A stretch of 63,623 bases of DNA, the filler included. It is 4 parts of 4 records of this genome, joined end to end, with 100 filler letters (N's around TTAATTAATTAA, not from the genome) between each part and the next. Parts side by side here need not be neighbours in the genome. Positions count along the whole stretch, not along the records: positions 49,930 to 63,623 come from SRR22947725_3719; 3 more parts are not named here. One strand, written 5' to 3'. Positions 13,911 to 63,623 of the stretch are shown in pieces. The notes beneath the pieces are model-generated. The model was not told the DNA's origin. It searched no databases and was given only the letters and a program-made list of their open reading frames with translations. The translations under genes were made by a program, and so were the position numbers. Each line of letters begins with the position of its first letter. The first letter of the stretch is position 1.

Positions 13911-14010
13911 NNNNNNNNNNNNNNNNNNNNNNNNNNNNNNNNNNNNNNNNNNNNTTAATTAATTAANNNNNNNNNNNNNNNNNNNNNNNNNNNNNNNNNN
14001 NNNNNNNNNN
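13911..14010. other. Artificial contig spacer (N run plus TTAATTAATTAA)
   Basis: Six-frame-stop linker at 13955-13966 inside N run; base composition changes across it. Confidence 0.98.
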
Positions 14011-35694: not shown

Positions 35695-35794
35695 NNNNNN
35701 NNNNNNNNNNNNNNNNNNNNNNNNNNNNNNNNNNNNNNTTAATTAATTAANNNNNNNNNNNNNNNNNNNNNNNNNNNNNNNNNNNNNNNNNNNN
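35695..35794. other. Artificial contig spacer
   Basis: N run with TTAATTAATTAA at 35739-35750. Confidence 0.98.
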
Positions 35795-49829: not shown

Positions 49830-49929
49830 NNNNNNNNNNNNNNNNNNNNNNNNNNNNNNNNNNNNNNNNNNNNTTAATTAATTAANNNNNNNNNNNNNNN
49901 NNNNNNNNNNNNNNNNNNNNNNNNNNNNN
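49830..49929. other. Artificial contig spacer
   Basis: N run with TTAATTAATTAA at 49874-49885. Confidence 0.98.
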
Positions 49930-50056
49930 TGTATCTATTGAAAATATTGAGCCTGAGTTTAATGCCTCAACTGATGAATTAGAAGAAGAATTTAATCAAG
50001 AAACTGAAGAAGAGCTTTTAGATATTCCTACTTTTTTGAGAAGGCAGGCTAATTAA
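49930..50056 (+). CDS. ftsZ: FtsZ C-terminal fragment
   Basis: Manual translation ...EEELLDIPTFLRRQAN*, the conserved FtsZ tail, upstream of lpxC. Confidence 0.9.
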
Positions 50057-50150
50057 GGTTATAATCTGACTGTAATATTTTGTAATATTCAGTTAGTTGC
50101 GGATTCTCCTAAAAAATATAAAAAAAGTGCTGTATTCAGCACTTTTTATT

Positions 50151-51026
50151 ATGATTGATATTAATCCTAACAAACAAAACCAACAAACCATTAGAGAAAC
50201 TATTTCAATATCTGGAATAGGTTTGCATTCAGGTAAGCAAGTTGAGATGAAACTTGTACCTGCTGAAGTTGACCAAGGTGTGAAATTTATCAGATCTGAT
50301 AAAAAAAATAATAATGTAATTGATGCAATATGGTCAAATGTTTCTGAGACTGTTTTGAGCACAACTATTTCTAATAGTAGTAAATTAAAAATTTCTACTA
50401 TTGAGCATTTAATGAGTGCTTTGTCTGGTCTTCATATTGACAACCTAACTATTTACATTGATGCTTCTGAAGTTCCAATTATGGATGGTAGCTCAAAACC
50501 TTTTGTTGATTTAATTGAGAATGTTGGCATTGAAGTACAAAATAAAAAACGCAAAGTACTTAACGTAAAAAAAATTATTGAAGTTAAAAGCAATCAAAGC
50601 TCTGCAAAAATCATTCCTAATAATCAGTTTTCTATTGATTTTGAAATTGATTTTCCAAGTCAGTTAGTCTCAAAGCAATCATGTCAATTACAATTAATAA
50701 ATGGTAATTATAAAAGTGATATAGCAGCTGCAAGAACTTTTGGTTTTGAAAAAGACGTAGAGTATTTAAGAGCTAATGGATTAGCTTTAGGTGGTTCACT
50801 AGATAACGCAGTTGTAGTTGGTAAGAATAAAATTTTAAATAAAGATGGTCTTAGATACACTGATGAATTTGTTAGACATAAAATTCTTGATTCAATAGGT
50901 GATCTATACTTAGCTGGATCACCAATTATTGGTTATTTTTATGGTAATAAATCAGGACATCATCTAAATAATGAACTTTTGAGAAAACTATTTTCTGATA
51001 AATCAAACTATGAATATATAGTTTAG
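50151..51026 (+). CDS. lpxC: UDP-3-O-acyl-GlcNAc deacetylase
   Basis: GIGLHSG, TIEHLMSAL, EVPIMDGS, ARTFGF, RHKILDSIGDL. Confidence 0.97.
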   Translation: MIDINPNKQNQQTIRETISISGIGLHSGKQVEMKLVPAEVDQGVKFIRSDKKNNNVIDAIWSNVSETVLSTTISNSSKLKISTIEHLMSALSGLHIDNLTIYIDASEVPIMDGSSKPFVDLIENVGIEVQNKKRKVLNVKKIIEVKSNQSSAKIIPNNQFSIDFEIDFPSQLVSKQSCQLQLINGNYKSDIAAARTFGFEKDVEYLRANGLALGGSLDNAVVVGKNKILNKDGLRYTDEFVRHKILDSIGDLYLAGSPIIGYFYGNKSGHHLNNELLRKLFSDKSNYEYIV

Positions 51027-52408
51027 ATCATTTTTTTTGGATCAACAATTTTATCAAACTCTTTAACTGTAACTAGTTTTAATTTTAATGCTGCTTCCCT
51101 TAATGTAATATTATCATTAAACGCTTTTTTAGCAATTTTGGCAGAATTATCATAACCAATATGTTTATTAAGCGCTGTTACAAGCATTAGTGAATTTTGA
51201 ACATGTTTATTAATGTTATCCTTATTTAATGTTATTCCTTCTAAACAATTGCTACTAAAACTTTGTATACCATCGCTAAGAAGGTTGATTGAATTTATTA
51301 CATTAAAAATAATTACTGGTTTAAAGGCATTTAATTCAAAATGACCTTGAGATCCTGCAAGAGATACTGCTAAATTATTTCCCATAACTTGGGTACAAAT
51401 CATACTCAAAGCTTCAATCTGTGTAGGGTTTACTTTACCTGGCATTATTGATGAACCTGGTTCGTTAGCTGGAATATTGATTTCTCCTAGACCTGATCTT
51501 GGGCCTGAAGATAAAAACCGTAAATCGTTAAGAATCTTTAATAATGATACTGCTAATGTATTTAGTGAGTTTGAAAAGTTAACTAATGAGTCATGGCTGG
51601 CAATAGCTTCAAATTTATTTTTTGCAGGTTTGTAGTTATTTATTGTAAATTTATTTAAAAATTTACAAAAAACTTTATCAAAGTTTTTTGGAGCATTAAT
51701 ACCTGAGCCTACAGCCGTGCCTCCTTGTGCTAAATAATTTAATTCTTTTTTTGATAACTTTATTCTTTCAAAATTATTTTCAATTTGATGTAAATAACCA
51801 GAAAATTCATCACCCATTGTTAATGGGGTTGCATCTTGAGTATGAGTTCTTCCAATCTTAACAATTTTTGAATATGACTTAGTTTTCTTTTTCAATTCGC
51901 TAATTAATTTTTTAAGAGAAGGGATTAGTTTACTATCTGTTAGTTCATTTGCTGATATGTGCATAATAGTAGGAAAAGTATCATTTGATGATTGTGATAA
52001 ATTAACATGATCATTTGGATGAATTGGCATTTTTGATCCTACTTTACCATTTAAAATTTTTATTGCATAATTGCTGATAACTTCATTAGCATTCATGTTA
52101 CTTTGTGTACCTGAACCAGTTTGCCAAACTGAAAGTGGAAATTCATCAATAAGACTAAGGTTAATAATTTGATCGCAAGCTTTCGTAATTGCTTTAGTAA
52201 GTTTGGAGTTAATTAAACCTAGACTATGATTTGCTAAAACACTTGCTTTTTTTTGATGTCCTAAAGCTACAATAATTTCCTCAGGAATTTTATTATTTCC
52301 AATTTTAAAGTTTTCTAAAGAACGTTGAGTTTGGGCACCCCAAAGTCTTTTTGAGTCAATTTTTTTGACTCCTAAACTATCAGATTCTGTTCTTTTCTTA
52401 TTTGGCAT
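51023..52408 (-). CDS. fumC: Fumarate hydratase class II
   Basis: WQTGSGTQSNMN, GRTHTQDATP, GSSIMPGKVNPTQ. Confidence 0.97.
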   Translation of the reverse strand: MPNKKRTESDSLGVKKIDSKRLWGAQTQRSLENFKIGNNKIPEEIIVALGHQKKASVLANHSLGLINSKLTKAITKACDQIINLSLIDEFPLSVWQTGSGTQSNMNANEVISNYAIKILNGKVGSKMPIHPNDHVNLSQSSNDTFPTIMHISANELTDSKLIPSLKKLISELKKKTKSYSKIVKIGRTHTQDATPLTMGDEFSGYLHQIENNFERIKLSKKELNYLAQGGTAVGSGINAPKNFDKVFCKFLNKFTINNYKPAKNKFEAIASHDSLVNFSNSLNTLAVSLLKILNDLRFLSSGPRSGLGEINIPANEPGSSIMPGKVNPTQIEALSMICTQVMGNNLAVSLAGSQGHFELNAFKPVIIFNVINSINLLSDGIQSFSSNCLEGITLNKDNINKHVQNSLMLVTALNKHIGYDNSAKIAKKAFNDNITLREAALKLKLVTVKEFDKIVDPKKMI

Positions 52409-52465
52409 TGTTTGTTAATAGACTTTTATTCTATAACATAAATAAAATACCAAATTAAATATATT

Positions 52466-53095
52466 ATGAACAAACTTATATTACTAAGACATGGTCAAAG
52501 TCAGTGGAATTTAGAAAATAGATTTACTGGTTGGAAAAACGTACCGTTGACTGAAAAAGGTGAAGCAGAAGCAAAAAAAACAGGAGAATTGATAAGAAAA
52601 CACAACATAAGTATTGATAGAGTGTTTAGTAGTGTTCTCGAAAGAGCAAATAGAACAGCTGAAATCGCAATAAAAAAGGCTGAATTAAATAATTTATTAG
52701 AAAATAATAAGATAATTATGACTTGTAGTGAGAAACTTAATGAAAGAGATTATGGTGATTTGGTTGGTTTAAATAAACAAGAAACTGCTGATAAATTTGG
52801 AAAAGACCAAGTACATATTTGGAGACGCTCCTATGATACCCCTCCACCAAATGGTGAGAGCTTAAAAGATGTTGTGGAGAGAGTAGCGCCGTATTTTAAA
52901 GAAAATATCAAACCACTTCTTGATAAAGGTGAAAATATTTTAATTGCAGCTCATGGAAACTCTTTGAGAGCAATGATGATTGAGCTAGGTATGTATAAAT
53001 CTGAGGAAATTTCCAATATAGAACTTCCAACAGGTTCACCTCTTTGTATCAATTTAGATCAAGGAAGATTAGTTGATTTTAAATATCTTGATTAA
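52466..53095 (+). CDS. gpmA: 2,3-BPG-dependent phosphoglycerate mutase
   Basis: LRHGQSQWNLENRFTGW, LNERDYG, WRRSY, AHGNSLRA. Confidence 0.95.
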   Translation: MNKLILLRHGQSQWNLENRFTGWKNVPLTEKGEAEAKKTGELIRKHNISIDRVFSSVLERANRTAEIAIKKAELNNLLENNKIIMTCSEKLNERDYGDLVGLNKQETADKFGKDQVHIWRRSYDTPPPNGESLKDVVERVAPYFKENIKPLLDKGENILIAAHGNSLRAMMIELGMYKSEEISNIELPTGSPLCINLDQGRLVDFKYLD

Positions 53096-53541
53096 TTTTT
53101 CTTATAATTAGAAAAATTTATTACATTTGAAGATTTTTTCTTTTTCACAGACTTTTTTTTCTCAACTAAAGTTTTTTTATAATCTTCAACTTTAGTTTTA
53201 TTGAATTGATAGTTAAGTCCAAAATTAGATGAAGGATCTGCAAATGAAATAATTGAATCAAAAGGAATTATTAGATCACATTTTCTATTATTAAACGAAA
53301 GACCAATATTAAAATTCTTTTTGTTTACTGAAAGATGATAATACTCATATTGGATTACAATCGTCATCTCACTAGGATACTTTTGTAACAACCAATCAGG
53401 AACTGATGTTTTAGGTTTGTTTGTTGCGAAAGTCACATATAAATGATTTTTACTATCTAAACCTTTTTTTTCAATTTCTTTTAATATTTCAATAAAAACA
53501 TTTAATAAATTTTTATTTAAAATTTTTTGATACTGAATCAT
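53092..53541 (-). CDS. sspB: Alphaproteobacterial ClpXP adaptor SspB
   Basis: NHLYVTFAT, YPSEMTIVIQ, FADPSSNFGL, C-terminal NVINFSNYKK. Confidence 0.85.
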   Translation of the reverse strand: MIQYQKILNKNLLNVFIEILKEIEKKGLDSKNHLYVTFATNKPKTSVPDWLLQKYPSEMTIVIQYEYYHLSVNKKNFNIGLSFNNRKCDLIIPFDSIISFADPSSNFGLNYQFNKTKVEDYKKTLVEKKKSVKKKKSSNVINFSNYKKN

Positions 53542-53660
53542 TTTTTATTCGATTATAGGGTTTCAAATTGTTTACTACTAAATCTTATTTTAAATGTTTG
53601 TTTAATATAATGAAATGAATTAAATGAATTTTATATATAATATTTTATTCTAAAACAAAT

Positions 53661-56111
53661 ATGGAAATTGAAAATAAAATCCCAAAATCGTGCAAGGTTG
53701 TAGTTATTGGTGGTGGTGTAGCTGGTTGCTCAACTGCCTACCACTTGGCTAAATATGGTTGGAAAGATACAGTTCTTCTTGAAAGAGATGTTCTCACTTC
53801 AGGGACTACTTGGCATGCCGCTGGCTTAATAGGGCAATTAGGCTCCAGCGCAACAATAACTAAGCTTAGAAATTATTCTTTAAATTTATATAAAAGATTA
53901 GAAAAAGAAACGGGACTTTCTACAGGCTTAAAACAAAATGGGTCACTTACTGTAGCGACTACTTTGGATAGATTAGAGGAACTTAAGAGGCAACTTACGT
54001 TTGCCCAACGCTTTGATATTGAAGCAAGACAAGTTAGCAATGAAGAAATAAAAGAAATTTACCCGCTAATTAATACTGAAGATTTAGTTGGTGGAGTTTT
54101 TATCAAAAAAGATGGGCAGGCTGATCCGGTTGGAGTGGCAAACGTTATGGCAAAAGCAGCAAGACAAAATGGTGCTACAATTATTGAAAAATGCCCTGTA
54201 AAAAAGATATTAACAAAAAATAATAAAATTGTTGGAGTTGAAACTAACTATGGAAAAATAGAATGCGAATATGTTGTCTTGGCAACAGGTATGTGGTCCA
54301 GGCAAATCGCAAAAGAAATTGATGTCAGTATACCTTTGTATCCAGATGAGCATTTTTATGTATTAAGTGAGCCCATAGCAGATATAGATAGATCATTGCC
54401 TGTTTTAAGAGATTATAATAATTGTCTATATCTTAAGGAAGATGCTGGTAAATTATTGGTAGGAGTTTTTGAGCCAAATGCTAAACCTGCTTTTACAAAC
54501 AATTATAAAGTGCCTGATGATTTTTCTTTTGGAGAATTGCCTGAAGATTTTGATCATTTTGAACCATATTTGATTAACGCAATGAATCGGGTACCTAGTT
54601 TAGAGCAATCAGGAATAAGAAAATTTTTTAATGGACCAGAGTCTTTTACGCCGGACACTAACTATCTATTAGGTGAAACTCCAGAGGTAAAAAAATTATT
54701 CATGTGTGGAGGTTTTAATAGTATCGGAATTGTCAGTTCAGGTGGAGCAGGTAAGGTTACAGCTGAGTGGATGATGAGCGGTGAAATGCAGGATGATATT
54801 TTTTCACTTGATATTTCAAGGTTTGAAAAATTTCACTCAGAATTAGATTTTATAACTGAGAGGGTTACAGAGACACTGGGTAATTTATATGCAATGCATT
54901 GGCCCTTTAAACAGCATACTACTTCAAGAAACCAAAAACTTATGCCTTATCATGATCATTTGATAAAAAGAGGAGCTTGTTTTGGTCAAGCGGCAGCATA
55001 TGAAAGACCAATGTGGTATGCAATTAATGGCAATGAACCAAAATACAAATACAGTTATGGGTACCAAAATTGGTATGAGTCTGCTGAATACGAAACTGTT
55101 AATGCCAGGAAAAATTTAGCATTATTTGAGTTATCACCTTTTGCTAAATTTGAATTGATAGGACCTAGCTGTCATTCCTCTCTACAATACTTGTGTGCAA
55201 ACGATATTAAAAATCAAGTTGGAGCTATAACATACACACAAATGCTTAATTCTAAAGGTGGAATAGAATCAGATTTAACTGTTACATGTATTGAAGAAAA
55301 TAGATTTAGAGTTGTTACAGGATCAGGTGTTCGAACGCATGATAAAAAACATATTTTAAAATACTTAGATTCATCAGTAAGTTTTACAGATATAACGGAT
55401 GATTATGCTTGTTTTGGTATTTTTGGACCAAAGAGTAGGGATTTATTAACAGAACTATTCGGTGATTATTATTCAAACTCAGATTTTAAATTTGGTACAG
55501 GTAAGAAAATCATTAAAGATAATATTACATTGTGGTTTCAGCGAATATCTTATGTTGGTGAGCTTGGTTGGGAAATATATATACCAACTGAAAAATCAAA
55601 AGAAATATACGAATTAATAATTACTTTAGAAAAAAAATTTGGATTAGTTCATGCTGGTGCACATGCGATGGACATCATGAGAATGGAAAAAGGTTATTTA
55701 CACTGGGGACATGATATATCGTCTGCTGAAAATCCTTATGAAGCTGGGTTAGCTTTTGCCTTAAAATTAAACAAGAAAGAAGATTTTATTGGTAAAGAAT
55801 TTTTAATAAATAATAAAAATATTCGCAAAAAGAAATTGTTAATGTTTGTATTAAATGACACTACTCCTGGTAACCCGCTATTACTCCATGATGAACCAAT
55901 TTATTATAAAGGAAAAATAGTTGGAGAAACAACATCAGGTAATTACTCTTTTATATATAATAAAAATTTAGCTTATGGTTATATTGATGCTAAACTAGTT
56001 TTTGATGTATCTAATTCTGTTTTTGAAATTGAGGTTGCAAAGAAAAAATATAAAGCTTCAGTATTGAATAAAGCTCTTCACGATCCTGATAATAATTTTA
56101 TTAGAAATTAA
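53661..56111 (+). CDS. GcvT-family FAD-dependent (dimethylglycine/sarcosine-type) dehydrogenase
   Basis: GGGVAG, SGTTWHAAG, NGPESFTPD, SYVGELGWE, RMEKGY. Confidence 0.9.
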   Translation: MEIENKIPKSCKVVVIGGGVAGCSTAYHLAKYGWKDTVLLERDVLTSGTTWHAAGLIGQLGSSATITKLRNYSLNLYKRLEKETGLSTGLKQNGSLTVATTLDRLEELKRQLTFAQRFDIEARQVSNEEIKEIYPLINTEDLVGGVFIKKDGQADPVGVANVMAKAARQNGATIIEKCPVKKILTKNNKIVGVETNYGKIECEYVVLATGMWSRQIAKEIDVSIPLYPDEHFYVLSEPIADIDRSLPVLRDYNNCLYLKEDAGKLLVGVFEPNAKPAFTNNYKVPDDFSFGELPEDFDHFEPYLINAMNRVPSLEQSGIRKFFNGPESFTPDTNYLLGETPEVKKLFMCGGFNSIGIVSSGGAGKVTAEWMMSGEMQDDIFSLDISRFEKFHSELDFITERVTETLGNLYAMHWPFKQHTTSRNQKLMPYHDHLIKRGACFGQAAAYERPMWYAINGNEPKYKYSYGYQNWYESAEYETVNARKNLALFELSPFAKFELIGPSCHSSLQYLCANDIKNQVGAITYTQMLNSKGGIESDLTVTCIEENRFRVVTGSGVRTHDKKHILKYLDSSVSFTDITDDYACFGIFGPKSRDLLTELFGDYYSNSDFKFGTGKKIIKDNITLWFQRISYVGELGWEIYIPTEKSKEIYELIITLEKKFGLVHAGAHAMDIMRMEKGYLHWGHDISSAENPYEAGLAFALKLNKKEDFIGKEFLINNKNIRKKKLLMFVLNDTTPGNPLLLHDEPIYYKGKIVGETTSGNYSFIYNKNLAYGYIDAKLVFDVSNSVFEIEVAKKKYKASVLNKALHDPDNNFIRN

Positions 56112-56123
56112 ATTAATTAAAAA

Positions 56124-56145
56124 GGGGCGTTCTGTTGCCCAGTGC
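56124..56145 (-). repeat. Displaced copy of the tmRNA 3' end (att-like direct repeat)
   Basis: GGGGCGTTCTGTTGCCCAGTGC is 21/22 identical to 63423-63444 in the same orientation. Confidence 0.85.
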
Positions 56146-56582
56146 AAGAAACGGGGCTACCGTTGGATCGTACACTTTTCACGCAAAAAACCAACTAATT
56201 TGTAGTTAATTTATTCATTCTTTATTAAAATCTTATTACCACTTTTCTATAATAAATGGCACTTCTAATCCCACATGGATCGCACATTTTTTTATTGCTT
56301 TGTGGTCCTATTCGCTAGGATAAACCTTCGTATTTAAAAATTGAATCATCTTAAAAATCAAACCATTCAATGCTCAACTCAACCCGTTAAAAGATTCTGA
56401 GCGTTAAAAAATTATGCCTAAAAAATTCATTTTAGAAAGGTACTGGGGAAGGATCGCTTCACTCACCTTTCTTTCTTATTAGTTATTTGAGAGCAAAGTG
56501 ATACATAGTGATCCACAGATGCTATAGAATGATGTTGTTGGAAAAATTTTTGTAGGATTAATTAGAAATAATTAGAAAAATA

Positions 56583-56635
56583 GTACAAAGTTCAAAGGTT
56601 TAGCAAATCTGTAGTTTGAGCCACTCACCAATCTA
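56583..56635 (-). pseudogene. Possible decayed tRNA-Ser(GCT) fragment
   Basis: Minus strand GGTGAGTGGCTCAAACTA-CAGAT-TTGCTAA-ACCTT resembles a D arm plus GCT anticodon loop; anticodon stem is broken and there is no T arm. Confidence 0.35.
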
Positions 56636-56767
56636 TAGTTTTTAAATTTTAAATACATATTATTTTATTTAACTATCAACAAATATTTACTTAAAACTCA
56701 TTAATATTAAATTTATTTTATTAATTTATATTAAAATATGGCTAAATTGTATTATGAAATATAAAAA

Positions 56768-58015
56768 ATGATTTATTCTATATTTAATTTTCAAAAAATT
56801 TTATTAATCTTTATATCAATTTATATTTTTCTAATTAACTTTTATCATTGGGATTATAATAGAATAAGAGCATCAGAATTTTTTTTTATTTTGATAATTT
56901 TTTATTCAATTTGTGGAATTTATTTTAAAAAAATAAGTTTTAATATAATAAATAGTGATCTTATAATTTTCCTACTACTATTATCTAGTCTATTAATTTA
57001 TACTATGAATGGCTTTGATAGAAGTTTTCTTTTTGGTGTTTTTTTTTACTTTTATATATTTATAATTTATATTTTTTTTCGAAATATATTAGAAATTTTC
57101 AATTATAAAATTATTTTAAAAATAATTCTTGTCTCCTCATTGGTTGTTTCAACAATGGGTATTATAGGTTGGATACTTTATCAATTTAACATTGAAAATA
57201 TTTTAGCTCAGGAAAGAGATTACCCTTTTAAAATTGGAAAAAGTATAAGAGCCAATAGTTTATTTAGTACCCCTAATATGTTTGCAATTAATTCGATTTC
57301 ATCAATAATTATTTTGTCATTCTTTAATTCTAAAAATCTGAAATATTATTATTTTTATCTTTTTGTATTTTTAACAGGACTTCTAATTACTTTTTCCAAA
57401 TCTATAATACTTTTATTCGGTTTGTTATTTCTATATTTATATTTAAAATCTAATAAAAAAAATTTTTTGAAAGTTTACTTATTTTTATTTATATTTTTTT
57501 TAATCATTCAAACTCTTTTTACTAATTTTATTATTATAAATGATAATAAAACAAACTCTTGGCTTAATCATAGTTTTGTAAAAGATAATTCTTTACCAAT
57601 CTTTGAAGTTGAAGGTTATAAAATTTACAAAACCATCTACTTTGATTTAAAAAATAAAAGCCTTTTAATTATAAAAGAATATTTTCCAGATGGAGTTGGC
57701 TTTAGAAATTTTAGTAAAATAAATATTAATGAATTTGATTATTTAAAAGATATTAATGCGCATTCAATTTACTTTGGAAGTTTAAGTGAAATTGGAATAT
57801 TTGCTATTTCAATTATCTTTTTTTTATTTTTTATGATTAATAATTCAATAAAACTCTATTTAAAAAATAAAGAATTTTTATTTTTAATATTATTTTTTAC
57901 TTATTTTATTGCTGAGGGTATTAACACGGACTTAATGAGCTATAAAATTACTTGGATAATTGTCGCAATATCTTTATATTTAAATAAAATAACAAAAGAT
58001 AAAAATGATTATTAA
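56768..58015 (+). CDS. O-antigen ligase/Wzy-like membrane protein
   Basis: Many TM helices, RANSLFSTPN, TFSKS, GVGF, NAHSIY...SEIG. Confidence 0.72.
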   Translation: MIYSIFNFQKILLIFISIYIFLINFYHWDYNRIRASEFFFILIIFYSICGIYFKKISFNIINSDLIIFLLLLSSLLIYTMNGFDRSFLFGVFFYFYIFIIYIFFRNILEIFNYKIILKIILVSSLVVSTMGIIGWILYQFNIENILAQERDYPFKIGKSIRANSLFSTPNMFAINSISSIIILSFFNSKNLKYYYFYLFVFLTGLLITFSKSIILLFGLLFLYLYLKSNKKNFLKVYLFLFIFFLIIQTLFTNFIIINDNKTNSWLNHSFVKDNSLPIFEVEGYKIYKTIYFDLKNKSLLIIKEYFPDGVGFRNFSKININEFDYLKDINAHSIYFGSLSEIGIFAISIIFFLFFMINNSIKLYLKNKEFLFLILFFTYFIAEGINTDLMSYKITWIIVAISLYLNKITKDKNDY

Positions 58016-58742
58016 TAAAAAAATTATCGTTGTTTTGCCTTCATACAATGCAGAAAAGACACTAAAAAAAACTGTAGAAGAAATAGATCGTTCAATTGTT
58101 GATGAAATTATTTTAATTGATGATTTTAGTACAGATAAAACACTAGAGGTGGCTAAAAAATTAAATTTAAAAACAATAAAACACAAAAAAAATCTTGGTT
58201 ACGGAGGTAATCAAAAAACCTGTTATAATGAAGCTTTGAAACAAAATGCTGATATTGTAATTATGCTTCATCCTGATTACCAGTATACTCCTAAACTTAT
58301 TCCTGCAATGGCTGGTATGATAGCTTCAGAAAAATATGATTTTGTATTAGGTTCAAGAATTATTGGAGGAGGAGCACTTAAGGGTGGTATGCCATTATAT
58401 AAATATATATTTAATAGAGTTTTAACATTAATTGAGAATTTACTAACAGGTCTAAAGTTATCAGAATTTCATACAGGATTTAGAGCATATTCAAGTGAAC
58501 TTTTAAAAAAAGTAGATTTTAATAATAATAGCAATGATTTTATTTTTGATAATCAAATGATAATTAAATCTCATTATTTAAAATTTTGCATTGGAGAAAT
58601 TTCCTGTCCAACAAGATATGATAAAAATTCATCTTCAATTAATTTTTATAGAAGTCTTATATACGGATTTGGATGTATTAAATATGGTTTATTATTTTTT
58701 TTAATAAAAAATAAAATATTTAAAAGTAGATTTTTTAAATAA
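58005..58742 (+). CDS. Glycosyltransferase family 2 (DPM1-like)
   Basis: VLPSYNAE, DDFSTD, NLGYGGNQK, HPDYQY, VLGSR, HTGFRAY. Confidence 0.92.
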   Translation: MIINKKIIVVLPSYNAEKTLKKTVEEIDRSIVDEIILIDDFSTDKTLEVAKKLNLKTIKHKKNLGYGGNQKTCYNEALKQNADIVIMLHPDYQYTPKLIPAMAGMIASEKYDFVLGSRIIGGGALKGGMPLYKYIFNRVLTLIENLLTGLKLSEFHTGFRAYSSELLKKVDFNNNSNDFIFDNQMIIKSHYLKFCIGEISCPTRYDKNSSSINFYRSLIYGFGCIKYGLLFFLIKNKIFKSRFFK

Positions 58743-58744
58743 AT

Positions 58745-59326
58745 TTATTTATCGTGAATAATTACCGAGTCTATTTTAGAAATTCCACTTATTAAGATTG
58801 GATCAGAAGATATTGGACCGCCGGAACTAAAAAAGTAGGTCCCTTTAGTATATTTTTTTTTGTAAAGTTGTGAATGGACGCAGGATGATCCTATAATTAA
58901 TAATTCAAAATTATCTAATTCCCAATTTTTATATTTAGAATTATTATTTAATTTACAAATTGGCCTATATATTGTTACATCTTCTAAAAAAGTAATTTTT
59001 AAATTTTTATTTCTATGTCTTTCTAATTGAATTATGTAATAATCTCTTAGTTTTTCTTCATTTTTTTGATTATAAAATATTCTGTCAATCCAAATATTTT
59101 GTTTTAATAAATACTTGCTAAAAAATATTTCTTTATGATTCCATTCTGGATATTCATCTTGATATTTTTTAAAGGTATCATCAAAAAAAAAGTTAATATA
59201 AATTTCATTTTTTATATCCTTAAGAATATAATAAGGAAAAATTTTTAGTTGCATTGTAATTATACCAAATAAATAAAAAAAAATAATAATTAAAATTAAA
59301 AATAATTTTCTTTTTATGCTTTTCAT
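58745..59326 (-). CDS. Hypothetical membrane-anchored protein
   Basis: N-terminal TM helix; start overlaps the VTC gene stop. Confidence 0.7.
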   Translation of the reverse strand: MKSIKRKLFLILIIIFFYLFGIITMQLKIFPYYILKDIKNEIYINFFFDDTFKKYQDEYPEWNHKEIFFSKYLLKQNIWIDRIFYNQKNEEKLRDYYIIQLERHRNKNLKITFLEDVTIYRPICKLNNNSKYKNWELDNFELLIIGSSCVHSQLYKKKYTKGTYFFSSGGPISSDPILISGISKIDSVIIHDK

Positions 59327-60000
59327 ATGTATGAAATTCCATTTGTTTTTGACAATCCTAATAAATATTTTGAACTTCTATTAAAATTTACATTTGTATT
59401 ACCTATTTTCTTTTGAAAAATATCTCTTAAATCTTCATTAAATTTAAATTCTATAATATTTTTATAATATTTATAATTATCATTTCTAAATATTTTGAAA
59501 TTACTTTCAGTTTTATAAAAATTAATATTTCTATCTACTGTGACTCTTATATTATTAGTGGTTTCATAATATTCACGAATATAATTCACCTTAAGAGTAG
59601 GATGTAAATTAGGATAAAAATTTATTTTAATAAGAATATCAAAATTATTATATAATAATTTTGTTAAGTCATTATATTTAATATTTTGATTAAATATTAT
59701 TTTATTTTTTATACTTATATTTACTTTTTCTCCTAATCTACCTATTTTATTTTTAATTTCAAGCACGGGACTATGAAAATCATTATTTGACCTACCATAC
59801 CACCTTATTCTAATTTTTTTTCTCTTTGATAAACCAATGATATTTTCTTTAGCAAACTTATATTTTGGCGTATCAAAATATATTGAGTTTACAAATCTAT
59901 TATTATATTTTTTTTTAATAGATGAATTTTTAAATAACCAATTTAAAATATTAATTGTATTTCTTTCATCAGTAATCAATTTTAGTTCATATCTATACAT
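59323..60000 (-). CDS. VTC (polyphosphate polymerase, CYTH-fold) domain protein
   Basis: RYELK, NSIYFDT, KIRIRWYG, LEIKNK, YIREYY, RVTVD, IIEFKF, SKY. Confidence 0.85.
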   Translation of the reverse strand: MYRYELKLITDERNTINILNWLFKNSSIKKKYNNRFVNSIYFDTPKYKFAKENIIGLSKRKKIRIRWYGRSNNDFHSPVLEIKNKIGRLGEKVNISIKNKIIFNQNIKYNDLTKLLYNNFDILIKINFYPNLHPTLKVNYIREYYETTNNIRVTVDRNINFYKTESNFKIFRNDNYKYYKNIIEFKFNEDLRDIFQKKIGNTNVNFNRSSKYLLGLSKTNGISYI

Positions 60001-60002
60001 AT

Positions 60003-62507
60003 TTAATAAATAGTATTAATATCAAATTTTTTTTCATCCATTAAAAGATTATCAATTAATAATTTACTTCCTGTCTGTCTTAAATATTTAATTTTATTAT
60101 TACTATTTTTGATGATACTCATAAAAGGATAATCATAAAATGATTTTTTTTGATAAGTCATAATGTCAAATATTTCATTATTATTAAAATTTGTTTCAGT
60201 TATGTAAACTTTACTTCCATCTTTAGAAACTATACCTATTTTTGAATTATTAATCTGAGAACTAACTATATCAACATTACTTTTTTCTCCTACAGAAATA
60301 CCTTTATCTTTTGTATATTCAATCAAAACATTTTTTAAAGAAGAATTACTTCCTGAATAATCAATAGCATCTCCTCCAATATTTTTAAAATGTGTATCTA
60401 AAATTTTACCTTTTGAAAAATCACTATCAACAGCATCAGAGTATATATTATTAAAATATGAATCCGTTATTTCAAAAGTTGATTCTATAAAATTAATAAA
60501 ATCTTCTTCAAAATTATTTGAGAAATTACAGTTTCTAATTTTGACGTTTGATTTATAAAAATTAATACCACCAGTTAAATTCAAAGGACCTGTATTTATG
60601 GATGATATATTTTCTATATTTACATAACTAAAATTTGATGATTTATCAGATAGATAAACGTATACCCCTCTCCAAATATCATTTAAGCTTGTTAAAAATA
60701 TTTGATCTTTTGAAGTTCCTAATGCTGTAATGGTACCATTTACTATAAGATAACTATTTTCATCAAATAATAACTTAGTACCCTTTTCAATTATTAAATC
60801 TCCATCAATTATAATAGGCTCAGTAACCTCCCAAGTACCTTTTTTTATTACCCAATTATTATTATTTTTTATTAAATAATCTGGCTTATCAAATTTTTGA
60901 AGGAGTGGATTTTTATGGATATTATAAATACTATAATTATTATCGTGAATTAAACTTTTTCCATTAAATGTAGCAAAAACTTTAAATTTTTTATCCTGTA
61001 TACCTAGATAATCTGTTTTTATTATTTTTTCTTTTATTTCTGAACTATTAGAACTATTGATAATTAAAGGTTCAAAAGCAATTTCCTTATTATTATATAA
61101 AATTTTGTCTATCTTAATTGGAAAAGGCAATAAATTTATTATTTTTAATCGACCGTCAGTATAATGTTTTAAGATTATATATTTTGGAATATTAAAATAT
61201 TCATTTATATCTAATGTTTTAGTATTATCTTTATTATTAAATGAGTTTTTAAAAGAATTTAAATCCAAATCTTTAATGTATTTGAGATTAGGTTTTAGAG
61301 AATCATAATTAAAATCTAATTTATCGTTGGGGAAATAATCTAAAGTTTTAAATAAGTATGAGTCGAAATTTTTAAATGTTTCAATAGATTTTTTTTTATT
61401 TTTTGAAAAGCTTGAAGTATTATTTTCTTTTAATATTTTTTGATAAATGTATGGAACCTTTTGAGGAAAAAGTAATTTAGGATCATTAACATCATTACTT
61501 ATTTGTTCTAATTTAAGCGTGAAAGGATTAAAATAATATCTTGCATTAAAAAAATTTAATCCATGCAAATTACCCCATATCATATGCATAAGATAAAATT
61601 GTGTGATGTTATCTAAATCAAAAATGTTGGTGTAATTACTACGTTCAAAATTATTAATGATGTAACTATATACTTTTCTAAAATATTCAGATTTTAAATA
61701 TTTCTTTTCTTGAAAAATATGATGGTATAACTTCGGTTCAGATAAAAGATAATTATCAAGAACATTTGAGTTTTTTACTTCATAAATCCACTTGTAATCA
61801 TTACCAAATTTAAAAACTAAAGATTCTTTTCTTTTTTGTTTTTCTAATAATTCCTTGCTGATATGCTCCTCAAGATTCATTACACCCCAATAAATACCAT
61901 TTACGTAGATATGGGAAAATGCACTTCCCTGACCCAAATAATTATTATTTATTAACATTGTTTGAAAAGCTTGATCAAATGGATAAAATCTAGAACTAGG
62001 TTTATGTAATGAGAATTGGTTAAACCCAAATATTGATTCTCCATTTTTTAATCTAATTCTAAAACTCATTCTTTTTTTACTAGCCCAATGATCATTAAGG
62101 TCGCCCTTTAATCTAATATCTGCTTTATATTTTTTTTTATCAAAAATGATTGTTCCATTTACAAATTCAGGATTTTCTAAAATTCTATCTTTTAAAGCAT
62201 TTTTTCTATCTTCTAAAATTTTAAGAAAATTATTATTATTAATATTAATTTTTATTTCTCCAATAAAATTTTTATCTTCGATACCATTAAAAGAAATTAA
62301 TAGATTTTTAATATTTGTAAATATGTGCTCTTTATTTAAAAATGCTTTAGTGCTGGAAAAACCTGTATTAAATGACTCAATATTTTGATTAATTTCTCTA
62401 ATTTCACTTTTAAAAAGCCAAAGATCAAATTTTAAAACAGAAATAAATAATACTAAAAAAATAATTAAAAAATAAAATTTTTTAATTATTTTTCGTTTGT
62501 AATACAC
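60003..62507 (-). CDS. CotH-family kinase with C-terminal parallel beta-helix repeats
   Basis: N-terminal TM, IRLKGD, SFRIRL, VNGIYWGVMNLEEH, NARYYFNP; repeats DAVDSDFS, DAIDYSGS, DKGISVGEKS. Confidence 0.8.
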   Translation of the reverse strand: MYYKRKIIKKFYFLIIFLVLFISVLKFDLWLFKSEIREINQNIESFNTGFSSTKAFLNKEHIFTNIKNLLISFNGIEDKNFIGEIKININNNNFLKILEDRKNALKDRILENPEFVNGTIIFDKKKYKADIRLKGDLNDHWASKKRMSFRIRLKNGESIFGFNQFSLHKPSSRFYPFDQAFQTMLINNNYLGQGSAFSHIYVNGIYWGVMNLEEHISKELLEKQKRKESLVFKFGNDYKWIYEVKNSNVLDNYLLSEPKLYHHIFQEKKYLKSEYFRKVYSYIINNFERSNYTNIFDLDNITQFYLMHMIWGNLHGLNFFNARYYFNPFTLKLEQISNDVNDPKLLFPQKVPYIYQKILKENNTSSFSKNKKKSIETFKNFDSYLFKTLDYFPNDKLDFNYDSLKPNLKYIKDLDLNSFKNSFNNKDNTKTLDINEYFNIPKYIILKHYTDGRLKIINLLPFPIKIDKILYNNKEIAFEPLIINSSNSSEIKEKIIKTDYLGIQDKKFKVFATFNGKSLIHDNNYSIYNIHKNPLLQKFDKPDYLIKNNNNWVIKKGTWEVTEPIIIDGDLIIEKGTKLLFDENSYLIVNGTITALGTSKDQIFLTSLNDIWRGVYVYLSDKSSNFSYVNIENISSINTGPLNLTGGINFYKSNVKIRNCNFSNNFEEDFINFIESTFEITDSYFNNIYSDAVDSDFSKGKILDTHFKNIGGDAIDYSGSNSSLKNVLIEYTKDKGISVGEKSNVDIVSSQINNSKIGIVSKDGSKVYITETNFNNNEIFDIMTYQKKSFYDYPFMSIIKNSNNKIKYLRQTGSKLLIDNLLMDEKKFDINTIY

Positions 62508-62513
62508 TGTATA

Positions 62514-63212
62514 CTACCAATTAATATTCGACTCCGTAAAAGTACATTCAATTTCATTATTGTATTCTTTTAAGTCAATCAATATTTGATCCAAAGTAAT
62601 ATTATTATTAGGTTCAACAATCAGCATAGCAGAATAACTTTCATTACTATAATCAACTCTAATAATCTTTATTGAAGTTAATTTATCTCTAATTTTTGAT
62701 ATTAAATCATCTATTAATATATTTTTATCTTTCCATGATAATAATAAATTAAACTCTAAATTATAAGAAGAATTTTTTCCTTTAAAAGAATACCATGTAT
62801 TAATAATTAAAATCATCGTAACTGAAATTATCGTAGTTATAACTGGCTGGTTAGCCCCAAAACCTAGCCCAATTGCAATTGCAAAAAAAAGATAAACTAA
62901 CTCTTCAGGCTCTTTAATTGGAGTTCTAAATCTTACTATAGATAATGCCCCTACTAAACCTAATGATAGAGCTAAAGATGACTTAACTATAACAATAACT
63001 AAAAAAATAATTCCTGTTAAAAGTGGCAAAATAGATGCTATGTTATTTTTTCCATTAAGTGAATTAGACTTATGCAAGTAAAAATATCTAAGAACAAATC
63101 CCAATATTAAACATAGAAAAAAATTAATAAGAGTAGGCATAATACTAATTTCATAAAAATCATTGGAAAGTGAATTTTCTATTATATTTTTTATTATAGA
63201 GTTGTCGTTCAT
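62514..63212 (-). CDS. DUF4956 (MgtC-like) membrane protein
   Basis: SSLALSLGLVGALSIVRFRTPIKEPEELVYLF signature plus a soluble C-terminal domain. Confidence 0.88.
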   Translation of the reverse strand: MNDNSIIKNIIENSLSNDFYEISIMPTLINFFLCLILGFVLRYFYLHKSNSLNGKNNIASILPLLTGIIFLVIVIVKSSLALSLGLVGALSIVRFRTPIKEPEELVYLFFAIAIGLGFGANQPVITTIISVTMILIINTWYSFKGKNSSYNLEFNLLLSWKDKNILIDDLISKIRDKLTSIKIIRVDYSNESYSAMLIVEPNNNITLDQILIDLKEYNNEIECTFTESNINW

Positions 63213-63420
63213 AATTTGTTATTTTAAATTAATACTTTTGATTTTAACTTTTATAATTATTTTAATTAAATTTGAAGTAATTATTTTATTAGTATTGAAG
63301 CTCAAATGAGATAATTAATTTTACTTGATTCTTACTTACCGTATTTAATAAATCTTGTTTTTAGATTTCACTGTAACTTCACTTTAAGTTATGATGATTT
63401 ATTTAAGGTGGATAAAAGTA

Positions 63421-63623
63421 GTGGGGCGTTCTGTTGCCCGGTGCCCCAAACCGCGCTAGCCTAGAATCTAGGCAGCGATAGCTAATCTATTATCGTTAGC
63501 GTTTATAAAAATAACCCGATAACGGTGGTATAATGCCGAGCAAAGTCTTTATCTTTTAGTCAACGTCAAACCTATTTCGCCCCCATTAAATCTATGGTGG
63601 AGGCGCCGGGTACCGCCCCCGGG
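63421..63623 (-). ncRNA. ssrA: Permuted two-piece tmRNA (5' end of acceptor piece cut by window end)
   Basis: Acceptor CCA ends at 63595; 10-nt intervening segment; coding piece starts GGGGGCGAAATAGG at 63584; tag 63500-63468 reads ANDNRLAIAA*. Confidence 0.95.

Follow-up and report, generated by a model that had tools for sequence, protein, structure and literature searches.

A recurrent three-gene bacterial cassette of DUF4956, CotH-like/beta-helix and VTC proteins as a candidate envelope phosphotransfer system

Genes for a CotH protein, a polyphosphate polymerase (PPP) and a DUF4956 protein, in some cases with DUF4832, are described in passages of Whitfield et al. as accessory genes of Gram-positive pel loci (10.1101/768473 = PMC7112168), and a locus table for C. 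perfringens shows the same families (PMC2879425). In S. intermedius, where the set is SIR_1592-1594, the relevant passages of an mBio paper report that loss of the DUF4956-type or the CotH-type gene lowers Pel and aggregation, and state that the authors did not find synteny of the triad outside pel loci (PMC12345266). Here we describe a form of this gene set from a 63,623-nucleotide stretch of DNA, filler included (the window), in which genes for a DUF4956 membrane protein, a CotH-like/beta-helix protein and a VTC protein lie side by side within positions 58745 to 63212, and we propose that their products may act together in the cell envelope. The gene set is known in print without a mechanism, and the form described here is a variant of that known set: a full-text literature search, supplements aside, returned the pel papers, the C. 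perfringens table and incidental mentions, and no functional study of a bacterial VTC, DUF4956 or triad. An annotation made beforehand from the letters of the window (the first-pass annotation) had taken the triad to be without functional characterisation, which holds as far as mechanism is concerned, but the pel accessory role and the S. intermedius mutants are published.

The window cassette shares with the pel accessory set the same three contiguous families (here with gaps of 6 and 2 nt), a link to exopolysaccharide, a CotH part that is predicted to be secreted, and a DUF4956-type protein, described there as an MgtC-like transmembrane (TM) domain with an ACT domain. It differs in that the host here is a Gram-negative, SAR11-like alphaproteobacterium, and in that the 834-aa CotH-like protein carries an AlgG-like beta-helix and a histidine variant of the active site, not an FN3 tail; Pfam searches of the 13.7-kb piece of the window that holds the cassette, which ends 411 nt past it at a tmRNA gene, found no pel gene and no DUF4832 gene. 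Synteny of the triad outside pel loci is widespread, including in Gram-negative phyla, with a distinct, histidine-variant branch of CotH. Passages of reviews of polyphosphate (polyP) assign its synthesis to VTC in eukaryotes and to PPK1/PPK2 in bacteria (PMC10657179, PMC7332688); despite that picture, a bacterial gene set has as a fixed member a VTC-type enzyme that carries the polymerase-specific lysine, and this cassette of three genes may explain extracytoplasmic phosphotransfer in bacteria.

The cassette and its recurrence

Four open reading frames (ORFs) are called on the minus strand, at 62514-63212 (232 aa; DUF4956), 60003-62507 (834 aa, with a GTG start; CotH-like/beta-helix), 59323-60000 (225 aa; VTC) and 58745-59326 (193 aa), and they are separated by 6 nt, 2 nt and then a 4-nt overlap (-4), the same coordinates and tight packing as had been read from the sequence beforehand. 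NCBIfam has no family for any of the four products. The limits of the operon are based on spacing only, because promoter-like sites are not in excess over shuffled sequences (78 versus 69.7 +/- 10.4) and the same scan found no terminator-like sites.

To compare related loci we scanned a set in which each species is represented by a single genome, with the CotH-like family as the only seed, which gave 567 relatives and from which 77 loci were kept; ORFs were called in as much as 7 kb of sequence to either side (less where a locus ends sooner) and searched with iterated profiles of the window neighbours. All three genes are present together in 52 of the 77 loci, and 45 of the 77 have them on one strand in the order DUF4956>CotH-like>VTC; because the order recurs in so many loci, it appears to reflect more than chance. 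The phyla with the cassette are Proteobacteria, Chloroflexota, Bacteroidota, Planctomycetota, Acidobacteriota and others, and to judge by the titles of the records Ornatilinea apprima, Aquimarina sp. and Patiriisocius sp. are candidate carriers that can be cultured. Two of the three genes are found in a further 11 loci, nine of which are cut by a contig end. A second sample comprised 121 genomes from the family of the Pelagibacteraceae genome G002, these being incomplete genomes in which absence is to be read as 'not found': 15 have DUF4956 together with VTC, each gene is found alone once (1+1, both at contig ends) and neither is found in 104 (Fisher p 5e-17), and where both are on one contig they lie 2.6-4.6 kb apart. 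Among the controls, Bacteroides thetaiotaomicron and Corynebacterium glutamicum each have both families. The recurrence of this triad in bacteria, stated in the first-pass annotation, is borne out by both samples. The unit that is conserved, however, consists of three genes and not of the four that had been grouped as an operon, a relative of the 193-aa gene being present at just one of the 77 loci. The pairwise distance matrices of the three proteins are also correlated (r 0.85-0.89, Mantel p 0.001, for 48 loci plus the window), which would fit inheritance as a unit. The CotH-like/beta-helix family itself is large: out of 1.84 billion cluster representatives, 5,758 match it at E<=1e-30.

Three predicted components

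The 225-aa product of 59323-60000 (minus strand) is a VTC (triphosphate-tunnel) domain protein, matching Pfam VTC (PF09359) with E 1.9e-20 and 73.9 bits against a cut-off of 23, over profile positions 2-232 of 235. It is strongly basic (43 K+R versus 19 D+E), contains no TM segment by hydropathy and no SPX domain, VTC alone being found by Pfam, and it is predicted to be soluble and cytoplasmic; the expectation of a VTC domain protein with no membrane part was correct. The family profile matches Vtc2 (3g3o, E 1e-12) and Vtc4 (3g3q, E 1e-10). The residues of Vtc4 needed for polyP are listed in passages of 10.1101/2023.01.27.525886 as K200, R264, R266, K281, R361, Y359, S457, K458 and E426, and it is K458 by which the active subunit, Vtc4, is told apart there from the inactive Vtc2/Vtc3. 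A 32-sequence alignment of the bacterial family has 24 invariant columns, among them R3, E5, K7, R64, R66, E81, K83, E184, K186, S210 and K211. In the profile alignment R64-x-R66, E184-x-K186 and S210-K211 fall on the R-x-R, E-V-K and S-K of Vtc4, the last stretch weakly, and a lysine (K211), invariant in the bacterial family, stands at the polymerase-specific K458 position; K7, K83, R142 and Y144 are invariant as well, and their equivalence to Vtc4 K200, K281, R361 and Y359 is by motif only. Hydrolases among the triphosphate tunnel metalloenzymes (TTMs) have four Glu, an acidic patch seen in AtTTM3, where Vtc4p has basic residues, according to passages of PMC4641920. Three of these positions were mapped, by motif register, onto the window protein: R3 and K186 are basic as in Vtc4p, and E5 is an invariant Glu. 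Polymerase activity thus seems likely, if not secure, from the residues kept.

Set beside the yeast VTC complex (Vtc4/Vtc3/Vtc1; 3g3q, 7ytj, 8i6v), the bacterial cassette has a homologous tunnel domain that retains the S-K pair as well as the key basic residues, and its design would be alike in that a polymerase in the cytoplasm is obligatorily coupled to a partner in the membrane; in yeast the mouth of the pore on the cytoplasmic side is ringed by basic residues, and on that side DUF4956 has its invariant R-x-R/K turn. In contrast to yeast, the bacterial enzyme has no SPX and no fused TM domain, it carries the extra invariant Glu in the first strand, its partner is a separate protein of five TM helices and an ACT-like domain that is unrelated in sequence to the three-TM domain of yeast, and the destination of the chain would be the periplasm rather than the vacuole.

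The membrane component, the 232-aa product of 62514-63212 (minus strand), matches Pfam DUF4956 (PF16316) with E 2.2e-18 and 67 bits against a cut-off of 30.6, and so do 31 of 31 aligned relatives. Its AlphaFold model (pLDDT 87.5) has a short N-terminal helix, TM helices at 24-48, 55-75, 79-96, 102-119 and 123-147, and an ACT/ferredoxin-like domain at 154-227 of beta-alpha-beta-beta-alpha-beta topology, which matches ACT, PII and IlvN-type folds with Z up to 10. A stretch at 73-105 that ends R94-F-R96-T-P-I-K100-E-P-E-E is near-invariant across phyla in the alignment, and R94, R96, K100, E103 and E104 are located at the predicted cytoplasmic turn between TM3 and TM4. A phmmer search of this protein and the 834-aa protein against the PDB gave nothing useful. 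The protein had been called an MgtC-like membrane protein: the DUF4956 assignment and the five TM helices stand, but MgtC itself (PF02308) does not match the window protein and matches 5 of the 31 relatives weakly (best 4.4e-4). The C-terminal domain superposes on that of MgtC (7qa5) with Z 8.5, tied with many ACT-like folds. DUF4956 and the MgtC family of Salmonella and Pseudomonas would share an architecture in which a polytopic membrane domain at the N-terminus precedes an ACT-like domain in the cytoplasm, whereas the near-invariant 30-residue motif belongs to DUF4956.

These features also bear on a different reading of the pair, in which VTC would not be a polymerase but a tunnel metalloenzyme of another type (a tripolyphosphatase, NTPase or cyclase), DUF4956 would be an MgtC-like regulator or transporter, and the system would serve envelope signalling without export of polyP. 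TTM enzymes with near-identical tunnel centres differ in activity, and in the direct comparison described in passages of PMC4641920 only Vtc4p made polyP; the invariant E5 matches a position of the hydrolase acidic patch; and the weak MgtC matches and the ACT-like domain of DUF4956 point the same way, ACT being a typical ligand-sensing fold. We nevertheless regard this reading as quite improbable, given the Pfam VTC score, the lysine at the K458 position, the basic residues at two acidic-patch positions, and a strict pairing with a membrane protein that mirrors the polymerase-channel logic of eukaryotes.

Natural fusions provide clues to topology. We found 310 longer DUF4956 proteins, and among the 120 listed, 96 contain PF06439 (lectin-like); in two that were examined a signal peptide is followed by the lectin-like domain and then by the DUF4956 module. 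Fusions of this kind, with an N-terminal signal peptide and PF06439 (3-keto-disaccharide hydrolase, lectin-like) joined to DUF4956, are seen in the series P0083-P0201, many of them of Anaerolineae type, and the PF06439 part is an extracytoplasmic sugar-binding module on the membrane component. Because these signal-peptide-bearing fusions are at the N-terminus, we infer that DUF4956 is oriented N-out/C-in, and with five helices this would place both the ACT-like domain and the R-x-R/K turn in the cytoplasm. Two single sequences, each from one contig, join the components directly: in P0139 DUF4956 is connected through 17 residues to a complete VTC domain, and in P0082 DUF4956, a TM anchor, a CotH fold and a beta-helix form one chain. 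Both fusions would fit with VTC inside and the CotH-like protein outside, and the P0082 arrangement works only if the CotH part is outside. An extracytoplasmic CotH-type protein, which the first-pass annotation required (a cytoplasmic domain would have counted against it), is therefore what both the N-in signal anchor of the window protein and the P0082 fusion predict.

The third component is the 834-aa product of 60003-62507 (minus strand), characterised by ORF calling, Pfam, hydropathy and an AlphaFold model (pLDDT 89.5, pTM 0.89). Its parts are, in order, a signal anchor (7-25), a helical stalk (29-73), a CotH fold (about 83-420), a beta-sandwich (444-522) and a beta-helix (532-829); hydropathy gives a single N-terminal TM segment, 7-25, preceded by KRK. 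Pfam finds only Beta_helix in this protein (E 2e-5, 24.7 bits, just under the 25.9 cut-off), and the CotH model (PF08757) gives no match even at E<=10. We nonetheless consider the CotH assignment, as a prediction, well founded, because 22 of the 31 aligned sequences among 75 relatives match PF08757 (best 2.6e-11), the family profile matches B. cereus CotH 5jd9 (E 4e-4), and Foldseek places CotH 5jda/5jd9 at ranks 1-2 for the model (E 7e-10, prob 1.00, TMt 0.57). Of the membrane-anchored CotH-type kinase with beta-helix repeats that had been proposed, the anchor, the fold and the beta-helix are thus retained, while a Pfam CotH match to the window protein is not obtained. In four loci (L041:10675-12129, L066:1-1584, L021 and L033) a second CotH-family gene, or a tandem CotH-like/beta-helix pair, adjoins the cassette.

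The designation as a kinase fares less well. The CotH kinase-fold domain (aa 83-420; 61248-62261, minus strand) was placed by the Foldseek matches to 5jda/5jd9 and by profile alignment, in which G-N-L-H-G-L of the window protein falls on Q-N-F-D-G-F of CotH, so that H315 (codon 61563-61565) is at the position of the catalytic Asp and D339 is on the Asp 23 residues further. The essential residues of B. subtilis CotH given in passages of PMC7821199 are D228 and D251, 23 apart. The residue at the catalytic-Asp position is His in all 31 aligned sequences; in a wider set of 141/142 rows, which was not de-duplicated, it is His in 139 of 141, the exceptions being Q and P and never Asp, and the metal-binding Asp (B. 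subtilis D251 = D339) is kept in 138 of 142. K134, E214, N321 and D339 are near-invariant in the family. The site therefore looks constrained rather than decayed, with another residue at the catalytic-base position. Because the catalytic Asp is replaced by His in every family member of the 31-sequence alignment, it is doubtful that the protein is a canonical kinase, or a 'kinase' in the usual sense. Relative to Bacillus CotH (5jd9/5jda), which is the best fold match for residues 83-420 or so and whose metal Asp and catalytic-loop Asn are conserved, the window protein has His for the catalytic Asp and no Pfam CotH score, it is predicted to be membrane-anchored and extracytoplasmic, its chain continues into a beta-sandwich and a beta-helix, and it has no sporulation context.

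For these reasons it is highly improbable that the 834-aa protein acts simply as a CotH protein kinase that uses ATP to phosphorylate secreted or envelope proteins, with neighbours unrelated to phosphoryl supply. Such a role would agree with the CotH fold, CotH being a proven Ser kinase in Bacillus (in passages of PMC7821199), and with the suggestion made in parts of the pel papers of regulation by protein phosphorylation (10.1101/768473); but it accommodates poorly the substitution in 139 of 141 rows, a predicted extracytoplasmic location, in which ATP would not normally be at hand, the fusion to a beta-helix of the glycan-enzyme type, and an order with VTC and DUF4956 that is fixed in 45 of the 77 loci.

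The C-terminal part of the 834-aa protein is a right-handed beta-helix (aa 532-829; 60021-60914, minus strand), whose best match by structural alignment (VIA-align) is AlgG, the periplasmic alginate epimerase (4nk6; Z 26.8, root-mean-square deviation 2.8 A, 273 residues), followed by AlgE4/AlgE6, tailspikes, polysaccharide lyases and NosD. Invariant acidic and basic rungs are formed by D669, D691, D694, D696, D713, D716, D734, K735, E741, K762, D763, K787 and K788. With AlgG and the CASH beta-helix enzymes, which act on a linear anionic polymer during export, the window protein shares the fold, its best match for residues 532-829, and, by prediction, a periplasmic location; it departs from them in having just 11-12% identity and a fusion to a kinase-fold domain, and the likeness is one of fold, catalytic motif aside. 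In six of the 77 loci (L007-L010, L012 and L025; Kiloniella type) there is a stand-alone protein of 370-385 aa that matches only this C-terminal beta-helix, with no VTC or DUF4956 nearby.

The genes that surround the cassette elsewhere were surveyed in 45 of the 52 loci with all three genes, seven loci being left out, taking, to the left and to the right, the three closest ORFs that reach 100 aa, after dropping ORFs that touch locus ends or exceed 1,200 aa. Genes for glycan synthesis are among these ORFs in 16 of the 45 loci, and include glycosyltransferases, Wzy_C/EpsG, DegT, sugar-nucleotide dehydratases and epimerases, Acyl_transf_3 and FkbM; together with the GT2 and Wzy_C-like genes next to the window cassette, they agree with a linkage to polysaccharide loci of the kind anticipated in the first-pass annotation. 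In four of the 45 loci the gene directly beside VTC encodes a family-I inorganic pyrophosphatase that bears a lipobox or a signal peptide (L040:6211-6810, L054:8611-9255, L067:10081-10737 and, on the minus strand, L055:10157-10945), a hint of phosphoanhydride turnover outside the cytoplasm. The flanks of these 45 loci contain no HlyD/TolC pair.

A candidate mechanism and its alternatives

ATP is not normally present outside the cytoplasm. We propose that the DUF4956, CotH-like/beta-helix and VTC proteins may form one envelope machine that supplies another phosphoryl donor there. At the cytoplasmic face the VTC tunnel enzyme would make polyP, or a short phosphoanhydride chain, from ATP, while docked on the ACT-like domain and the R-x-R/K loop of DUF4956, and an oligomer of DUF4956 would pass the chain across the inner membrane. 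In the periplasm the 834-aa protein would hold a linear surface polysaccharide, or the polyP chain, on its AlgG-like beta-helix, and the CotH-fold site with His315 would move phosphate off the exported chain and onto the glycan, perhaps by way of a phospho-histidine; the likely product would be a phosphorylated, more anionic surface glycan. We infer the synthesis of polyP, the contact between VTC and DUF4956, the pore and the use of polyP as donor from the features set out above, and we put the probability of this full model at about 0.4. A model of export and periplasmic phosphotransfer fits the predicted topology, the fusions and the neighbouring exported pyrophosphatases. The more detailed scheme, in which phosphorylation outside the cytoplasm is independent of ATP, VTC-made polyP travels through a DUF4956 pore, the histidine of the CotH fold is the nucleophile, the glycan is phosphorylated or polyphosphorylated, and exported pyrophosphatases recycle the stub, is tentative and on the unlikely side.

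The same linkage, topology and VTC residues would be expected if polyP were the product of the system rather than the donor. VTC and DUF4956 would then export a surface or periplasmic polyanion, which the CotH-like protein would bind, anchor, trim or cap; the chain would lie on the acidic, metal-bridged beta-helix, glycans would not be phosphorylated, and polyP would serve in cation binding, in a capsule-like layer or in cross-linking of a matrix. The beta-helix is consistent with this, since its nearest relatives are enzymes of linear polyanions (AlgG, AlgE and polysaccharide lyases) and its invariant Asp and Lys rungs are stacked, as are the loss of the catalytic Asp, the exported pyrophosphatases that adjoin VTC in four of 45 loci, and the presence of nearby glycan genes in just 16 of the 45. 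However, K134, E214, H315, N321 and D339 are near-invariant, which points to catalysis over mere binding, and phosphate spent on an exported polymer would presumably be costly for an oligotrophic marine cell; we judge this alternative unlikely. The first half that it has in common with the donor model, in which polyP is made and moved outward, seems to us reasonably probable.

Several observations weigh against the model in which exported polyP is the phosphoryl donor. The activity of every bacterial member of the three families is predicted from sequence or structural model. For VTC, K7 is equated with K200 by motif only because the first tunnel strand did not align to the solved Vtc chains, and the invariant E5 stands at a position of the hydrolase acidic patch with no counterpart of this kind in Vtc4p, so that a triphosphatase or other TTM reaction may be catalysed instead. 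A pore in DUF4956 is purely conjectural: no resemblance to the membrane domain of yeast VTC was detected, and the TM part has no convincing solved counterpart, although the C-terminal domain fills the structure match lists and the missing counterpart therefore does not show the TM fold to be novel. For the CotH-like protein, residues were mapped onto CotH through a profile alignment whose posterior probability is moderate, and a change of Asp to His is also expected of a pseudokinase. With regard to the loci, 8 of the 77 contain a full-length CotH-like/beta-helix gene with neither VTC nor DUF4956 in the locus, 29 of 45 have no glycan gene among the nearest ORFs, the correlation of distances is expected for any genes that share a species history, and the DUF4956-VTC fusion P0139 could be an artefact of assembly or a frameshift.

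Should the donor model be true, phosphotransfer would be possible for bacteria in a compartment without ATP, and a role would be found for two large families that have had none assigned, as well as for a kinase fold whose His is unusual. It would provide a first function for bacterial VTC, for DUF4956 and for this branch of CotH, and a new way of energising envelope chemistry; the cassette would be a transferable module that re-charges surface glycans, with a bearing on Pel biofilm matrices, cation binding and the adsorption of phages. For SAR11-type cells it would mean that the strain-variable surface islands include a further trait, one that is costly in phosphorus.

Source genome and island setting

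The window consists of four pieces joined by N spacers at 13911-14010, 35695-35794 and 49830-49929, each spacer being two runs of 44 N that flank 12 bases. The G+C content (GC) of the pieces is, in order, about 57, 51, 40-32 and 29-20%, and they look unrelated, as if from different organisms; the genome G001, offered as the nearest, has no match to the last of them. The cassette is confined to the last piece, 49930-63623 (13.7 kb), which begins with lpxC, fumC, a histidine phosphatase gene (His_Phos_1), sspB and a DMGDH-like gene, and ends within an alphaproteobacterial (permuted) transfer-messenger RNA (tmRNA) gene at 63420-63623 (minus strand; Rfam RF01849, 156.8 bits, E 6e-44), which is cut by the window end. 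Because the DMGDH-like protein resembles Pelagibacteraceae genes (59-62% identity to genes of three single-cell genomes) and the piece ends in a tmRNA gene of this type, the host is taken to be a SAR11-like alphaproteobacterium. Three seawater or marine metagenome runs, from two studies, contain near-identical DNA that accounts for at least half of the sampled words; 19 runs are listed as carrying some matching DNA, 16 of which share <0.5 of the sampled words, and there is no RNA run among them.

Direct repeats of the end of the tmRNA gene bracket the island in which the cassette is found, a segment of 7.3 kb with a GC of about 20%. The left copy (56124-56169) is just past the stop codon of the DMGDH-like gene (56111), and the right copy (63423-63468) is at the island-facing end of the tmRNA gene; the first 17 nt are exact, and the copies match at 78% over 46 nt. 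Between them (56.5 to 63.2 kb) the GC fraction falls from 0.28-0.35 to 0.16-0.27. Islands that insert at ssrA usually leave repeats of this kind as a scar, and the segment looks like an old ssrA-targeted insertion. No integrase gene was found within the island between the repeats, and Rfam at a relaxed threshold gave no tmRNA fragment at the left repeat, which is too short for the model. The 600-nt non-coding stretch from the left repeat to the first island gene (56170-56767) has a GC above that of the island, and its Rfam matches are all below threshold. The island has six genes, which encode a Wzy_C-like polytopic protein, a GT2, the 193-aa protein and the DUF4956, CotH-like and VTC proteins; PADLOC reported 0 families for all six proteins.

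Several observations mark the cassette as a transferable accessory module: the GC and repeats of the island, the other-lineage loci to which the window cassette proteins are nearest in a comparison of protein distances, in preference to Pelagibacteraceae loci, its differing locations, and its presence in 15 of the 121 family genomes. On two large contigs of the same family the cassette lies elsewhere and not beside the tmRNA gene, once again in a GC dip. An island cassette in a SAR11-like genome, accompanied by GT2 and Wzy-like genes, fits strain-level variation of the surface, for example of phage receptors.

The 193-aa gene (58745-59326, minus strand), which overlaps VTC by 4 nt, encodes a protein with one N-terminal TM segment (8-26, by hydropathy) and no match in Pfam, NCBIfam or the PDB (a profile search of the PDB gave 0 matches), and so remains the anchored protein of no known family that it was at first sight. 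An Atlas search gave a best score of 0.88 to 0.90, to an unnamed cluster; the six relatives found are unnamed, and R103-H104, G146/S148/C149/H151 and G169-G170-P171 are conserved. At locus L024 (5512-6075, minus strand) a relative lies beside the cassette, upstream and divergent. The gene is a local passenger outside the conserved cassette.

Two plus-strand genes complete the island. The first (56768-58015) encodes a polytopic membrane protein of 415 aa with about nine hydrophobic segments, weakly similar to Wzy_C/O-antigen ligases (Pfam Wzy_C, E 7.9e-7, 29.4 bits, cut-off 31.7); it has no similarity to the Wzy_C gene that adjoins the SAR86 cassette. The second (58005-58742), convergent with the cassette, encodes a 245-aa GT2 glycosyltransferase of the polyprenyl-phosphate sugar transferase type (Pfam Glycos_transf_2, E 1.4e-24), whose best likenesses in NCBIfam are to PpgS, dolichyl-P hexose transferase, AglJ and ArnC types, all far under their cut-offs. 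It is 37% identical (E 6e-50) to a GT2 directly upstream of DUF4956 in the Pelagibacteraceae locus L020. We note also that in a planctomycete (L073:6848-9288) genes for a phosphoenolpyruvate mutase/cytidylyltransferase and a thiamine pyrophosphate enzyme, of the phosphonate biosynthesis type, lie directly downstream of the cassette.

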